Positions 57,237 to 64,000 of a DNA stretch of 64,000 nt are shown here, in pieces. Positions within the stretch are counted from its first letter, which is position 1, and every line of letters starts with the position of its first letter. The stretch comes from Spizellomyces punctatus DAOM BR117 (taxonomy: Eukaryota). The stretch lies in NCBI GenBank assembly GCA_000182565.2, contig KQ257451.1; one strand, given 5' to 3'. Both the position numbers and the translations under genes were made by a program. A model generated the notes under the pieces. It did not search any database, was not told where the DNA came from, and saw nothing but the letters and a program-made list of their open reading frames with translations.

Positions 57237-59176
57237 TTATTCAGCAGCAGGTTCCTCGATCTCGATATTCTGGAGGACTGGGATGATATCTTCCCAAACT
57301 CTTAACCCCTTATATGAAAGGACAGTTGGCAAAGGACCCCTTGAACCTCACGCAAGCATAGTATTCTCACCTTTTGGAAATATTCCATTTGGCTCTCAGT
57401 ATAGTCGCGCAAAATGTCTTTAAAATCCGCGACTTTGACAGATTGGAAGAGTTCCAGTTCCTTTGCTACCTCGTTCGAAAATGCTGTAGATATATCGTGA
57501 CTCTGCTCTACAGCTTCGGTTAGCTAGAACCGAGAGCCAAACCAAATTAATAACAGTCCTCTATTTCCGAGAAGATACATCGCATACCTCTGCAATTTTC
57601 GCCTCGAGTCTCGCCAGTTTGGCCTGTCTCGCCTGCTCGTGATTGATATTTCTAAAATCATTATATTTTTCTTTTATAAATGACGTTATTCCTCCGCTGC
57701 CGCGCCCCGACATGGTTCGCTCTCGATCGGAAACGCTATTTTCTAGGTAGGTTTGGAGTTCTTCATGATCCACCTGCTTTTGGTCCCTCAATTTCAGGAC
57801 TTCCTACATGATGTGAAGGGATTGGATTGTGATCAGATGTTATGGAGAAAGAGCTGCAATCGGACCACGTATTGATCTACCTTTACGGAATGACAGTACG
57901 CAATGTACTCCCTAAGACTTCCAACAAAGTCTACCTCTTCCCTTTGAGACTGCACGTACAATGTGAGGAACTGGCACATTTGGAAAACACATTATCCTAG
58001 AACGGGCGTCCTCACCTTATCTTTCAACAGGGTACATATCTCCCGCACAGTATTTCCGAACTCCGTTAGCGGCCCCGTTACTTGGGTCTCCATGACTCCA
58101 AGCGTTGTTATACATCCTTCGAACTCTGCTGTATCCCGTTCCAGGTCTACGGAACCAGTAGACGAATCAGCCACGCGCACGTCTCTCGAACTTGAAGACC
58201 ATGAATTTACCAGCGTGCTGCTTGAGCAGCTTGGTGTGAAGCTTCTCGACTGTGGTGAGGTTCTCTTCAAATTTTTCGACATTCTCCTTGAACTCTAGGA
58301 ACTGTTGATCGGGCTTTCGGACTTTGGCAAATGCGTTCAAAAACACATCGCTGATATTCTCGAGGACGTGGCTATCACGATTTCGCGAGGCTGCTTCTAC
58401 AATTTGCTGAACGCCGTGGGATATCATTAATTGACATGACTATCGGGTAGTGGGAAGAGGATAAACGGCATTCCTACCAAATCACCAGTATCCAGAAACT
58501 TCTTCAGTACCGCACTTCGCTGTAATGTGGGATGCCTTGATACTCGATCAAGATATGTTTGCAAAGACAGCCGTCGCTTCTCTATGAACTCGGGGCTAAA
58601 GCGATCACCTGTTATGTACTCTGACAACGGCCACAATCGGTTACTGCATAGTTTGCTGAAATCTGTCCAGGACGCGTCACCTACCCATTCGATGTTTGCC
58701 CGGGAGTGGTGGAACAATACAGGCGGGATATTCCTCCCCTAAACTGCGGTGCAGCCATACGAAGTCCTGGAAACGTCTTCGGGTTGACATTTCCGGCCGT
58801 GGATATGTATCCAAGATCGTCTATAAGACCCATCATTTGAATAACTAGAACTCTGATAACTCATTCGCTAAACTCGACGTACTCTCGTATTAACTGCATA
58901 TGTAACAAACGCTCCTGAACCTTCGCCATGCTTTTGTGGGTCCGTCACAGTTATTTTGAGCGCATCCGTAGCATTTAGAGCAAATGTTGTGAGCGTTGGT
59001 GATATGCTGGATCGGACTGGAGAGGTGGAGCTTGAAGCCTGAGAAAAGTGGGACTGAAAGCGTTTGAACACGGCGGACAGTGGTGTTTTCACCCTGCGTT
59101 GAGAGAAAGATACCTTGGTTTCTCCAGTTTCCCAGGGAACATCGCTGTAATCTTCCCCCATGTAGACCTCCTCCAT
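57237..59176 (-). CDS. SNX4: Sorting nexin-4 / Atg24 (PX-BAR); multi-exon
   Basis: PX domain ITVTDPQKHGEG...FVTY, RRRFQDFVWLH, IVPPLPGKH, EYITGDRFSPEFIEKRR...LDRVSRHPTLQ; BAR region SDVFLNAFAKVRKPD, LKLRDQKQVDHEEL. Confidence 0.93.
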
Positions 59177-59375
59177 TTTGAGCACGAAACTAGATTGAAT
59201 GTGCTATTAGTATCCGCAATCACAGGATTGCGTCGGCGATGTGTTGGTTGGCAGATGGTTTAGGGGCCAATCCGCACTGGAGCTGCTGACTCACTGCGTG
59301 CTTGGCAGGCTTTGCCATGTATGATGGGCACAGTCATGAATGAGCGCGGTCTAATTACGTGAGCAGGAACACTCG

Positions 59376-61206
59376 CTACATTCTATCAACGCCTTTGACT
59401 CCTAGCAGTGATAATCCCCAGCTAATCACAGTTTGTATAGCTCTTACAAGCTCTGCCCTTGCCTCTTTCACCTCATTCGACTGGCCTTTAACCCGTATTC
59501 CACTTAAGCAGCTGCCAACCTCCCGAGACAACTCTACGAGATATGTAACCAGAACCGAGGGATCATGTGTGTTTAGGGTCGTGAAAAGGACGTGTGGGTA
59601 TCTAGAAAGTTTTGAAACAAGAGCCAGGGGGATGGGTGTGCTCAAAAGCGGTGTGATATCCACTTCGGGATTTGGGGGCGGAGCGTGGCATAGAACGGAA
59701 GCTAGCCGAGCGTGGGTGTATTGGATGTATACACCAATATCCGATTCATTGGAGACGATGCGGGACCAGTTGTAGGAGAAGTTTTTCGTTCGACGTGGTT
59801 GGTACGTTTGGAATAGCAAAGCTGTTAGACCGATCATGTCAGGCGCGTTATTTTGGGTGACCAATTCGTTTTCTACATGTTCACCAATGCTTGACTCCTT
59901 TTCCCGCATGATGTCTTCCATGTACATCTTGGCGCAATTCAAATACGGTTCTGGTGATAGTACCGGCTCGGAGGTTCTCATGTCCATGTCGTAGATCTTT
60001 CCAAAGGGCGCATCGATCAAATCATGGATCCCACTCTCTACTAATTCCACCAGCTTCCTGCTTTGTTGAAAGGAATACTGACGTCCAATTTCAGCAACTA
60101 CATACGTTTTCGAGACGTGACATTCTCCTCTTTCCATCGAAATTACTGCATCCACCAGTACTTGTGTTGGTACACCATCGCCAGTCATCAACAGTGCCGT
60201 TCCCAGTTGCCAATCCCTCAAATCCACAATTTGTTCCCCTGCGTTTCTGCCAGGTTTTAGTAATCCGGCCTCCTGAAGGAACGTAAGAAATCTGTCCACT
60301 CGATCTTTACATATAAGCTCGTCGGTCTCCAATTGGCCGGAGATACCCATGCGCTCGAGGACCGGAGCAAAACTATCCCTCCAAGCTTCCCAAGCTCGGC
60401 TCCACATTTCCACGATCGCAGGAATGCCGCAGTAAAGATCGTAGAGTAGTTTTTTTGAACGCAGCAAAAGGGTTGGATTCGTAGTGATATCTTCAAGAGT
60501 GCGTTCAAAGTTTTTATGAAGTACAAGTGGTGTATAGGGGCCGTCTTCGAAGCCATTACGTTGACAGGCAAGAAGAAGAATCTCTATACATAGGAGACTG
60601 TTACCGATGCTTCCCACATCTCCTCATACATTCGGCAGGATTCTCACCGGTGTGTTTATTCCAAATCCCAATTTTGCAGCGGAGTTTACCATTTTGCGAA
60701 CGGAGCTTGCAGCATCTCTCTACAAACGCGGCAACCGCAAGGGATCTCCAATACCGCGAACTAAACACTTGGCCAATGTTTGGAAAGTCAAACTCGATTA
60801 CAACTTCCTCTTCTCTCTCCACAATGGCGGAATGGTTACGGGATTTTTCCGGTCGTGAAAGTTCGCCGCTTCTGACTGCACCCAAAATGCTGGAGATGAA
60901 CAACCGAGAGTCGACATGAAAGCTCAGATGGTCGCTGGTCGCGGTTACAGCCCGAACATGACTTGTGGGCACCCATCTTGAAGCAATAGAGGCTGCGAGA
61001 GCTGCTGGGGTGAGGTTGGAGTGACTACACTTGGTCTCTGGGTCTTGCCGATACAGAGAGATCAGCTTGGCTACAGGAAGGGTGAACTGTCCTGGTTCTT
61101 TGAATGGACGCCGGTTTCGCTCTATGAAAGGTAGGATGGAGGTGGGGGGGAGTGATACTATTGGAGCGAGCTCGGTAGCAATATGCAGCTGAAAGAGTTC
61201 CCCCAT
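59376..61206 (-). CDS. Arginyl-tRNA synthetase-like protein with degenerate catalytic motifs and a retained DALR domain; 2 exons
   Basis: Colinear with ArgRS: N-terminal Add1-like region, VVIEFDFPNI, YVVA, FSYNW, GVYIQYTHARLASV, LVTYLVELS, ARAEL...GLSLLGV...RM. One intron (about 60649-60584) joins the two ORFs. Confidence 0.85.
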
Positions 61207-61422
61207 GTTCAGCGCAAGCAACGGGTATAGCGAGGAGTTGAAAACTCGAGAGATTCCTATGACTGTGCCATATGCGAGAACGCGTACGGACACAGGTACG
61301 GACACGAGCGTACGAGCTTTCTTCCGACAAGCATCTTTCACATTACATTGCCCATCGCTGCGCGTTCTTGTCCAGTTCCGACAGAGTAGACTGTTGTGAG
61401 AACATAGCGGATCTCAGTATAA

Positions 61423-64000
61423 ATGCGGCTGGGAAGTACGAAAGATGAAAACCCGCCACGGCGCTTGTTCATCGGAGATGTTAAGTCCGGGGCGATATGG
61501 AAGACCTTCGAATGGAGGAAGGCGGTGGGGGGACATGTGAAGTCTGGGTTAGTAGTTCTACTTGGACATGTTGATTAGCGACGGGCGCATAGCTTGGTCT
61601 CCCATCATCTGAACGATAGTAGTAGTTAACGCATACCGTTTCTAGCTCCCTGCTTCGCATTCAGAATGCAGGCCAAGCACATCACACAGCATCGAGAAGT
61701 ACTCGCACCAACCACCGTACTGTGCCGTTTACTTGCGTCGGCTTTAGCAAGGAAATGACGGATAGTAGTCCATCCCAGCAACACCAGGGTTCGCTTACAT
61801 TTGTTATGGGTGCTGTGGATCAGAGGGGTTATGTTTGGGTCTTCGAGTTTTCCAAAAATAAGTTTGTATTGATGGTTGGCAATCCTTATGTCCCTTCAAA
61901 TGAACTTAATGATCAACCTACCGCAGATTTTGGCTTATTGCGAGAACTGGCGTTTCCGGGACGTGTATGGCATTCAATTCTGTGCGAAGACGTGAATTAA
62001 TCATTGGCTTGTCCGACAATTCTTTGCATTGTTACAATATTGGTGCGTTTTTCCAAATACGCGTGGTATGGACTCGCACTAACGAGCGGTCGTACAGATA
62101 CATGTCAGCTTATCGCAAAGCTCCCAGCTTATCACAACTGTGCACCCCATCAAATGGCCGTTCATCCCACCCGACCGCTCGCAATATCAACCTCGCGCAC
62201 GGAAGGAATTCTATGGGATACAGAATTGTGGGAGCGTAAACGACTATTGGTCGGTGCGCAATCCGGTGTACGCCAGGTAAATCAATTGTAGACAGGCAGG
62301 AAATACTCTCAGCCAGCTAAATAACTCCGGCAGGCTGTCTTCTCGGCCGATGGATCTACAATTATATCTGCATTTGCAGACGGAAGTATACTTCTGTGGA
62401 ACGTAGATACATTTAATCTCAATTGGAAGATATCACTGGAGCGTTTCGGTGGGGCCCCGCTGATTCCTTATGAGGAACATGACACAGGATTTGGAAGGTC
62501 TTCTATGGCTGCGTCCCGCAATGGCGAGATTTTGGTTGAGGCTGGAGGGTGAGTTTTGTTGGTATTAAATTTTCGCAGTTAATATAGGCAGCCCTGTCTA
62601 AGTATTTGCCCTTCCGCCTTCAGGTCGTCCACAGTCTTCGTATGGAATCTGGCCGAAAAAAGGCTGATGCATGAAATTCTCGTTCCTACCTTCGAAGGCA
62701 AGAGAATTGTACAAGTGGATTTCCTTGGAGATAGCAATGTAAGGTGATCCTACTTCTGGACATGCGATATCTATTGACGTTTTCTGTCCACAGATTGTCG
62801 CGCTACTATCAGACGGGGGTGACCTGCTGTTCATTGATGCAGCGGAGGCCAGGTTCGTGGGGAAGTTGGAAGGGAAACGGAAGGTTCGCAAACGTTGCAA
62901 GTTTTCCTTGCAGTTGTGATGGTCAGGCTCATTGGAATCTCTTTACCGCAGTTTATATCATTCGCAGCCTCGCCAAACGGCCGGCTGCTTGCTACAGTCT
63001 TCTTGGATTCGACATCTACAATTGGGCTGGTGCGAGTGGATAAGCTTTTGGAACCTCAGGTAAGACTCGCTCTACTTATGTATCCCATAAACCTAAGGAT
63101 GCAAACCAATTCTCAGAAGTGCGAAGGCGTTGGAGATATGGCTGAGCAAGAGGAGGCCGTACGTGTATACAACTTCCTTCTTTGAACTCCACTTTTGCTC
63201 TGCCTGACCGATAATGTGGTCTTCATCAGTCATTCGAGATGCTCGAGGAAACCAAACGTACGTAGCTGGCCCAACACAACAGAGGTTTGGTTGATGAAAA
63301 TGTCTCTGACTGGAAAACTCAGAGTCAGAAGCAGATGAAGGTTTGCGAACAACGGTAGCTGTTGCTCCCGACCAGGCAAAAACGCTCTACGAGCTTGTTG
63401 ATATGGGCGTAAGTGACACCACCATTCAGCAACTTGTGGCGCAAGAGTTAAGGTGCAATTAAAACACAGCCAGAAGCCAAAACCCTTAGTCGATCAAAGT
63501 TGAAGACGTTCTTATCCTACTACGGAAGTTACCCGGACAAATACAGGTCGGTTGTATATCATGCATATGCGAAGGCACCTGGTCTCAACGGCGATGGATA
63601 TAGAACTTTGATATGGCGCTTCCTTCTACACTTGCCTGAGAACCGGAACAGCTACGAGTCCCTATTAGAACAAGGCACGCACCCCTCTGTCAAAGATTTC
63701 CGAAAACATTTCCCACTGAAAAGTGGGAGAAGTCTAAAGAGTATGGAACGGTGTGTCTTGTCATTTACGGGCATTGAGCTTTGAACCGGGCCATGTATGT
63801 TTAAACTCCTTCCTCTCAAGAGTTCTGTCCGCTCTTGCCTATTGGTCTCCAATATTTGAAAGCTTGGATTACCTTCCGTCGTTGGTCTTCCCCTTTGTCA
63901 AAATCTTTCTAAGAGATATGTTTGCTGGATTTGAGGTTGTCATGACAGTGTTGGGTAAGGTATTCGAGCAAATTTGTTATACTGATGGCAGTCTCCGATA
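61423..64000 (+). CDS. TBC1D31: TBC1D31/WDR67 (WD40 plus TBC domain) centrosome/cilium protein, 5' portion; runs off the window
   Basis: N-terminal GDVKSGAIWK, WD40 exons (ILWDTELWERKRLL, FADGSILLWN), then FLSYYGSYPDKYRTLIWRFLLHLPEN...GTHP...LAYWSPIF...YLPSLVFPFVK, characteristic of the TBC1D31 TBC domain. Confidence 0.88.

Follow-up and report, generated by a model that had tools for sequence, protein, structure and literature searches.

A candidate pseudo-synthetase derived from arginyl-tRNA synthetase in Spizellomyces punctatus and other chytrids

What does a protein do that is built like an arginyl-tRNA synthetase (ArgRS) from end to end, but reads SSRY at the place of the HIGH motif? The question comes from a minus-strand gene of two exons (61206-60648 and 60583-59376, with its ATG at 61206 and its stop codon at 59378-59376) of a 64,000-nucleotide stretch of DNA, hereafter the window, from contig KQ257451.1 of Spizellomyces punctatus DAOM BR117. 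An earlier reading made from the letters of this stretch (the sequence-only reading) had proposed a full-length ArgRS paralogue with a dead active site, which might serve as a tRNA-Arg adaptor or sensor. The first part of this proposal is borne out by the homology, the loss of motifs and the intact DALR domain, whereas the adaptor part stays a prediction. The explanation that we hold to be probable is a catalytically dead ArgRS paralogue, belonging to an old, vertically inherited, chytrid-wide family, which is most likely a non-catalytic binder of tRNA-Arg.

Homology, fold and loss of the catalytic signatures

The nearest database protein is P0003 of Spizellomyces sp. 'palustris' (584 residues), which is named arginine--tRNA ligase. 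Exon 2 alone matches the yeast ArgRS of PDB entry 1bs2 with an E-value of 3.5e-35, a similarity that chance cannot account for. The same entry is the best PDB match of P0003 (E 8e-43), and it is matched over positions 8-597 by a profile of the family described below (E 1.6e-97). Pfam DALR_1 is found in the exon 2 product (E 8e-20) and in 11 of 11 family members. Pfam tRNA-synt_1d matches full-length P0003 at 25.1 bits (cut-off 23.3) and 9 of the 11 members, and it gave no match to the separate exon products; the N-terminal Pfam domain PF03485 was detected in none of the 11. With the NCBIfam argS equivalog TIGR00456, exon 2 reaches 119.3 bits, where 261.65 is the cut-off.

An AlphaFold2 model of P0003, computed with the family alignment as input, has a predicted local distance difference test score (pLDDT) of 85.7 and a predicted template modelling score (pTM) of 0.84. 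The Add1 domain, the Rossmann core and the DALR domain of the ArgRS fold are all present in it. Its best Foldseek matches are 1bs2, over 597 columns, and 1f7u, both with a template modelling (TM) score of 0.84. Together with the profile match to 1bs2, this agrees with the end-to-end alignment to ArgRS described from the sequence. Look-alikes in the ESM Atlas were ordinary ArgRS clusters only, with nothing specific among them.

For the catalytic sites, yeast numbering follows the 1bs2 alignment and a yeast-like homologue whose offset is constant, and 12 family sequences were tabulated against 24 canonical ArgRS. The motifs quoted in the sequence-only reading (EFDFPNIGQVF-SSRY-WRS, GIWN, TGDGVPTQVLVD, MDMRTSE and the DALR stretches) are all present, at the coordinates collected in Table 1. 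Both HIGH histidines are lost from the window protein, as had been claimed: His159 is replaced by Ser and His162 by Tyr, so that SSRY stands where a functional ArgRS (EC 6.1.1.19) has HIGH. Gly161 is replaced by Arg, Lys156 by Gln, and Gln375 by Gly or Arg, depending on the alignment. Glu148, Asn153, Arg164, Trp192, Glu294 and Asp351 are retained.

The loss extends to the whole family. S150, S151, K156, H159 and G161 are each found in none of the 12 family sequences and in all 24 canonical ones, except H159, which is present in 22. Among the 11 members that can be aligned there, Y347 and Q375 are absent from all and R350 is kept in one (canonical, 24/24 each). R411 is seen in 4/12 and G413 in 1/12 (24/24), the MSTRKG loop is deleted in 4/12, and this KMSKS-equivalent loop differs in sequence and length across the family. 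A transition-state lysine, in the HIGH loop or in the MSTRKG loop, is therefore not a property of the family (K156, 0/12); the HIGH-loop lysine is called crucial in the title of a 2001 article by Sekine. The arginine pocket (yeast N153, Y347, D351 and Q375) is incomplete as well, since the window protein keeps N153 and D351 only, and N153 occurs in 3 of the 12 members. The second HIGH histidine, H162, is present in 7 of 12 (24/24 in the canonical panel); it is lost in both Spizellomyces sequences, Quaeritorhiza, Blyttiomyces JEL0837 and Nowakowskiella. The former core also has motifs of the family's own, namely CRxxxW, TDEL for sGES, and PT....D, and D274 and E275 are almost invariant in the family alignment A1.

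Many ordinary-looking bacterial ArgRS, among the matches of the phmmer search described below, read SIGH, GIGH, AIGH or SIAH at the HIGH position. For this reason, the loss of the first HIGH histidine alone is not diagnostic. Judging by the alignments, what can be taken as diagnostic is the combined loss of the catalytic motifs.

The anticodon-binding DALR end is conserved, terminal Met included, in accordance with the sequence-only reading. The equivalents of yeast W475, G486, Y491, H493, R495 and G600 are present in 12 of 12 family members, and the C-terminal Met (equivalent to M607) in 11. Alignment A1 contains 17 invariant columns, nine of them at positions 447-577. Y491, R495 and the terminal Met are presumably anticodon-loop contacts in yeast ArgRS. 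For the yeast enzyme, C35 is given as the main identity element in Igloi 2021.

Table 1. Features of the ArgRS-like gene, in window coordinates
Feature	Coordinates	Strand	Remarks
Degenerate signature EFDFPNIGQVF-SSRY-WRS	60742..60795	-	Residues 138-155; SSRY (60762-60751) replaces HxGH; HIGH-loop Lys is Gln
GIWN replacing GDWG	60658..60669	-	D191 1/12 and G193 1/12 in family, 24/24 in canonical ArgRS
TDEL replacing sGES	60315..60326	-	Family-specific conserved motif; Glu294 retained (E294 11/12)
TGDGVPTQVLVD replacing (K/R)sDGttlYxTRD	60150..60185	-	Tyr347 to Gln, Arg350 to Val, Asp351 kept; holds the family-specific Pro-Thr motif
MDMRTSE, remnant of the MSTRKG (KMSKS-equivalent) loop	59967..59987	-	From 1bs2 alignment and site table
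DALR anticodon-binding domain region	59379..59822	-	Residues 441-588; Pfam DALR_1 E 8e-20
Omega-loop and YxQYxHARL stretch (with GVYIQYTHARL)	59703-59750	-	Within DALR domain
EARAEL	59448-59465	-	Within DALR domain
GLSLLG...RM, including C-terminal Met	59379-59417	-	Within DALR domain
Exon 1	60648..61206	-	Residues 1-186 and base 1 of codon 187; Add1-like N-terminal domain and beginning of the degenerate Rossmann-fold core
Intron	60584..60647	-	64 nucleotides, GT..AG, phase 1
Exon 2	59376..60583	-	Residues 187-588 and stop; rest of the degenerate catalytic core, and the anticodon-binding domain (DALR)

Distribution, constraint and origin of the family

A phmmer search with P0003 against 1.84 billion representative sequences was exhaustive and gave 2583 matches with E<=1e-3; the list examined holds the best 150. 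Next to the self-match, five matches (E 6e-77 to 2e-45) stand out from the bulk of the ArgRS, whose E-values begin at about 1e-37. A phylogeny was built with FastTree from 144 sequences of at least 430 residues (142 of the listed matches, the window protein and P0003), and in it one clade holds exactly 12 sequences: the window protein and 11 representatives. These come from Spizellomyces sp. 'palustris', Powellomyces hirtus, Fimicolochytrium jonesii, Gaertneriomyces semiglobifer, Borealophlyctis nickersoniae, Quaeritorhiza haematococci, Blyttiomyces helicus, Blyttiomyces sp. JEL0837, Phlyctochytrium bullatum, Chytridium lagenaria and Nowakowskiella sp. JEL0078. Orthologues with the same loss of motifs, which the sequence-only reading had proposed to look for, thus exist, and with the window protein the family covers 12 species or strains from several chytrid orders. 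Among the 150 matches listed of 2583, the family is seen only in chytrids, and more divergent members, for example in Batrachochytrium, could rank lower.

Spizellomyces, Powellomyces, Fimicolochytrium and Gaertneriomyces are Spizellomycetales, and Borealophlyctis belongs to the Rhizophlyctidales. Within the clade, the four Spizellomycetales genera cluster, with Borealophlyctis as their sister. The branching follows chytrid taxonomy, which matches the prediction of vertical descent. The members are only 24-34% identical to P0003, and their source names vary: five of the 11 are called arginine-tRNA ligase or arginyl-tRNA synthetase, one carries a UniRef name, and five are hypothetical or uncharacterized. 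The Quaeritorhiza haematococci protein (P0075, 1020 residues) is extended at its C-terminus by about 380 residues. Among the 11 aligned members there is one, presumably the same protein, that matches Pfam TCTN_DUF1619 (4.5e-20) and may be a fused gene model.

The distribution of constraint along the protein was compared in five species that carry both the family protein and a canonical ArgRS, as mean pairwise identities per domain. The family has 20.8% in Add1, 25.3% in the core and 38.6% in the DALR domain; the canonical ArgRS of the same species have 41.4%, 69.0% and 62.1%, respectively. The family/canonical ratio is therefore 0.37 for the core vs. 0.62 for the DALR domain. By these identities, the constraint is inverted: the core, which is the best-preserved part of the canonical enzymes, is poorly preserved in the family, where the DALR domain now ranks first.

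At a shorter distance, positions 59000-61586 are covered, with 183 substitutions, by a 19.6-kb contig from the DNA of a relative (run X9). The coding indels among those listed add up to 12 nucleotides (7+4+1) at 59883-59896; they are in frame and correspond to the four-residue gap of P0003, whereas both flanks carry indels of 1-2 nucleotides. The window protein differs from P0003 at 43 of 584 aligned residues, with 9.8% in the core, 4.1% in the DALR domain and 4.8% in Add1. The ratio of non-synonymous to synonymous rates (dN/dS) is roughly 0.2-0.4, a bracket for which 40 of 181 substitutions were itemised, all before 59371, the divergence of the flanks was assumed and the organism of the contig was taken to match P0003. 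This rough value indicates purifying but not strong selection within Spizellomyces.

Where does the family come from? In the main tree (47 rows, LG+C20 PMSF, quick search), the eukaryotic sequences divide into two groups. The first contains the fungal enzymes with a GST domain, including the canonical chytrid ArgRS, and the second the RARS2-like mitochondrial proteins of holozoans, the short ArgRS that zygomycetes have as a second enzyme, and the chytrid family. The support (SH-aLRT, the Shimodaira-Hasegawa-like approximate likelihood-ratio test) is 100 for the family, 89 for the family with the short type and 86 when the holozoan RARS2-like proteins are added; for the family with the short type, it is 98 in a second tree (44 rows, LG+G4). 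A tree constrained to unite the family with the chytrid GST-type ArgRS is worse by 25 log-likelihood units (approximately unbiased (AU) test, p 0.029), which disfavours an origin as a chytrid-specific duplicate of the GST-type cytosolic ArgRS. An origin near the canonical fragment P0080 was also considered and rejected, as P0080 groups with choanoflagellate sequences in the second tree. The N-termini are net-positive in the short and RARS2-type proteins, whereas those of the family are neutral or acidic in 9 of 12 and slightly positive in three. By this crude heuristic of N-terminal charge, there is a crude sign that the family may have lost a presequence. Most likely, the ancestor of the family is the short ArgRS of early fungi, probably a mitochondrial enzyme, and not the cytosolic ArgRS with a GST domain. 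According to Igloi 2021, the mitochondrial gene is the general source of fungal ArgRS and took the place of the ancestral nuclear one.

Canonical enzymes were searched with the ArgRS of Zopfochytrium and Borealophlyctis as seeds and a length range of 400-1339 residues; this gave 4608 and 5902 matches at E<=1e-50, and the best 120 of each were examined. A GST-type ArgRS coexists with the family protein in 6 of the 12 species or strains (Borealophlyctis, Quaeritorhiza, Blyttiomyces JEL0837, Phlyctochytrium bullatum, Chytridium lagenaria and Nowakowskiella JEL0078), and five of these six are in the motif-intact panel. No canonical ArgRS of Blyttiomyces helicus is among the best 120 of 4608 and 5902 matches. 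Zopfochytrium polystomum is listed with three GST-type ArgRS (765, 746 and 588 residues) and Rhizophlyctis rosea with two; the extra copies are lineage-specific duplications of the canonical enzyme. In the 64-kb window, no second ArgRS locus was found, and tblastn with a canonical ArgRS finds this locus alone.

Gene structure, transcription and neighbouring genes

The spliced coding sequence has 1767 nucleotides, that is, 588 codons and the stop. Over the first 186 residues, encoded by exon 1, 176 are identical in P0003 (95%), and exon 2 shows 91% identity. With the intron retained, the frame would stop at about 60601. The description of an intact frame with a canonical intron holds: two open exons are joined over a 64-nucleotide GT..AG intron, and the join (KHT-E-ILLL) is identical in P0003.

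Run X8 contains RNA, because the spliced form of the neighbouring gene is present in it. Error-free pieces of the gene are found in this run at 59788-60010 and 60648-60876, the second of which terminates exactly at 60648, the boundary of exon 1. Among the indexed sequencing runs, none of RNA was listed as containing the locus. Raw RNA reads of run X21, which bears the same species label and of which about 6% was read, cover 59261-59956 with a depth of up to 47 and are sparse over 60392-60913 (depth up to about 2). No read or contig spanning the junction of the 60647-60584 intron was reported, at a threshold of three reads and within about 6% of run X21. The gene is transcribed, the strand of the RNA reads being ambiguous.

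RNA reads of the opposite orientation accumulate at 59348-59956, in the last 600 nucleotides of the gene, in a library of ambiguous strandedness. Three reads skip 81 nucleotides (joint at 59430/59512), and on the plus strand the skipped piece has GT..AG ends, which points to an antisense transcript that is spliced and begins near the promoter of the downstream gene. That downstream neighbour, at 58427-59203 on the minus strand, encodes a PX-domain protein (Pfam PX, 2.6e-9), and its 60-nucleotide intron at 59054-59113 is confirmed by a spliced contig of run X8. Upstream, a divergent open reading frame on the plus strand (62325-62552) has a weak match to WD40 repeats (E 3.9e-4), below the Pfam cut-off. 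No tRNA genes were found within the 64-kb window.

Known pseudo-synthetases and alternative explanations

ArgRS is a class I monomer. The yeast-type ArgRS (1bs2/1f7u), of mitochondrial origin, and the chytrid protein share the three-part architecture, the fold, the DALR domain, the omega-loop with YxQYxHARL and the C-terminal Met. However, the chytrid protein lacks the catalytic signatures, stays below the TIGR00456 cut-off and, as a family, has no detectable PF03485. The nearest proteins in the trees are the short zygomycete ArgRS without a GST domain (Bifiguratus, Mortierella, Choanephora and Neoconidiobolus) and holozoan RARS2. They are of similar length and, like the family, begin directly with the first Add1 helix; unlike it, they keep HxGH, GDWG, Y347, Q375 and MSTRKG, and their N-termini are net-positive.

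DALRD3 is the closest parallel named by the sequence-only reading, which left it open whether the gene was its counterpart or an independent parallel invention. In Lentini et al. 2020 (PMC7237682), DALRD3 is described as restricted to vertebrates, with an N-terminal part that has no recognisable synthetase motifs; it is an adaptor that brings METTL2 to tRNA-Arg-CCU/UCU, and it is suggested to be a duplicated ArgRS that lost catalysis. Like DALRD3, the chytrid protein is ArgRS-related, has no synthetase motifs and ends in a DALR domain. Unlike DALRD3, which was compared by its published description, the family is fungal and the whole ArgRS fold can still be recognised. A counterpart by descent is not supported by these data, as the family forms a chytrid-only clade that branches with the short zygomycete ArgRS, and DALRD3 is reported only from vertebrates. 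The independent invention is the option that fits, because the family nests with the fungal short ArgRS, as a separate fungal offshoot within the mitochondrial-type ArgRS group.

A second parallel is SLIMP, which is presented in PMC10570016 as a paralogue of animal mitochondrial SerRS with an ablated active site that supplies tRNA binding. Both are duplicates of a mitochondrial-type synthetase that lost the catalytic pocket and kept the tRNA-binding part, and SLIMP gained a new role. In contrast to the chytrid family, SLIMP is a class II protein and forms a heterodimer with an active SerRS subunit. The bacterial NrtL (NF045898) is a stand-alone ArgRS anticodon-binding module, to which there is a weak match (E 1.6e-5). 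With 24.5 bits against a cut-off of 340, the chytrid protein is no NrtL; the NrtL model has 327 positions and matches the C-terminal part only, whereas the chytrid protein is a full-length ArgRS homologue. By analogy, it can be regarded as a putative pseudo-synthetase of the DALRD3 or SLIMP type in kind and as a member of neither family. No description of the family was found in the published full texts on DALRD3, on inactive ArgRS paralogues and on chytrid ArgRS; Igloi 2020 (Gene Reports), on eukaryotic ArgRS with comments on Chytridiomycota, may bear on it.

How could such a protein have arisen? The machinery for adenylate formation (HIGH, the HIGH-loop lysine, GDWG, Tyr347, Gln375 and the MSTRKG loop) would have been lost at the base of the family, while the ArgRS fold and the DALR domain would have stayed under selection and family-specific motifs would have arisen in the old core. 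The protein would then no longer aminoacylate, and it would still bind tRNA-Arg through the anticodon stem-loop. The role that this binding serves may be a non-enzymatic one, namely that of an adaptor, a chaperone or a sensor for tRNA.

Several observations weigh against this explanation. Active-site residues persist in the family (E148 in 9/12, P152 and R164 in 12/12, W192 in 9/12, E294 in 11/12 and D351 in 8/11), and the second HIGH histidine survives in 7/12, though not in Spizellomyces. The roles of the yeast residues (binding of ATP and the transition state, arginine pocket) reportedly go back to Cavarelli 1998, Delagoutte 2000 and Sekine 2001. In Add1, the family shows no conservation at the positions that align with yeast N106, F109 and Q111, so that it may bind tRNA less strongly than a real ArgRS does, or in a different manner. 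The placement in the tree rests on very long branches, and the group for the AU test was named after the tree had been seen. Finally, a canonical ArgRS of any Spizellomycetales is absent among the best 120 of 4608 and 5902 matches, in which nearly every other chytrid order is represented. The working ArgRS of this order may have diverged further, may belong to another type, or may have a length beyond the range of 400-1339 residues, and for this reason a separate working ArgRS in the S. punctatus genome is only inferred. That the gene might be the only ArgRS of its genome, which the sequence-only reading had named as fatal to its proposal, is thus excluded for the family, by the canonical enzyme in 6 of 12, and for Spizellomyces by inference only.

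The same observations lend themselves to a still working, highly divergent ArgRS with an unusual active site, either a chytrid mitochondrial enzyme or the sole one in Spizellomycetales. Its descent would be from the short, probably mitochondrial, lineage; the missing Spizellomycetales enzyme, the largely kept E148, R164, W192, E294 and D351, the second histidine in 7/12 and the natural bacterial ArgRS without a first HIGH histidine would all suit it. We nevertheless think it quite unlikely, since both histidines are gone in Spizellomyces, K156 and G161 are found in 0/12 and Y347 and Q375 in 0/11, the MSTRKG loop is unconserved and deleted in 4/12, and the core is the least constrained part relative to the canonical enzyme (0.37 vs. 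0.62 for the DALR domain). The N-terminal net charge, zero or below in 9/12, speaks weakly against a classical presequence, and a dedicated mitochondrial ArgRS may have no organelle-encoded substrate, because chytrid mitochondrial DNAs (mtDNAs) encode only 5-8 tRNAs and none for Arg is among the five listed for Synchytrium endobioticum. A functionless relic, that is, a transcribed, pseudogene-like duplicate in neutral drift, would account for the long branches (0.84-3.2 changes per column in members other than the Spizellomyces pair, vs. a median of 0.58), for the low identity to P0003 (24-34%) and for a rough dN/dS of 0.2-0.4, which is above the expectation for a housekeeping enzyme. Such decay is very unlikely when full-length frames are kept open in 12 species or strains of several orders, when the listed coding indels relative to the related contig are in frame only and the flanks have frame-breaking ones, and when 17 columns, the DALR residues and family-specific motifs are preserved in a confidently predicted fold. 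The sequence-only reading had described a relic as unexpressed, devoid of orthologues and with dN/dS near 1; RNA reads, orthologues and a rough value of 0.2-0.4 were found.

A true fungal orthologue of DALRD3, guiding a Trm140/METTL2-type methyltransferase to m3C32 on tRNA-Arg, would follow the same logic, in which a protein related to ArgRS has no synthetase motifs and carries a DALR domain at its C-terminus, and would match the suggestion, in Lentini et al. 2020 (PMC7237682), that DALRD3 itself is an ArgRS duplicate without catalysis. It is the least probable of the explanations considered here, as the family nests with the fungal short ArgRS, occurs only in chytrids among the 150 listed matches, and no DALRD3-named protein is found among 68 database matches or in the PDB profile search. 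This last search, made for a solved DALRD3-like chain, returned ArgRS chains only, and chance matches above E 0.01. By analogy, one could also think of a retired mitochondrial ArgRS that would be kept as a handler of nuclear-encoded tRNA-Arg, escorting or selecting it for the organelle, which we regard as unlikely. Chytrid mtDNAs encode only 5-8 tRNAs (eight in S. punctatus), those of Synchytrium endobioticum being Met, Trp, Tyr, Pro and Leu, with no Arg; tRNA-Arg is therefore probably imported. A precedent is the yeast mitochondrial LysRS precursor, which carries into mitochondria a tRNA-Lys(CUU) that it cannot charge. The acidic or neutral N-termini of the family argue against simple co-import. 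In a variant, the retained acidic pocket (E148, E294 and D351) may sense free arginine or uncharged tRNA-Arg.

With the non-catalytic tRNA-Arg binder as the preferred explanation, the family gains a wider interest. Pseudo-enzymes derived from synthetases, such as DALRD3, SLIMP and the HisRS-like domain of GCN2, are few, and each of them has brought a new layer of tRNA biology to light. The arginine-tRNA ligase label on family members would inflate ArgRS gene counts. Spizellomyces punctatus is genetically transformable. The chytrid family would be an independent, phylum-wide case of a pseudo-enzyme built from ArgRS, in a fungal lineage whose mitochondrial tRNA biology is unusual, with its tiny set of mitochondrial tRNA genes and 5' tRNA editing. 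As such, it would be a natural experiment on why an anticodon-binding module is kept after catalysis is lost.

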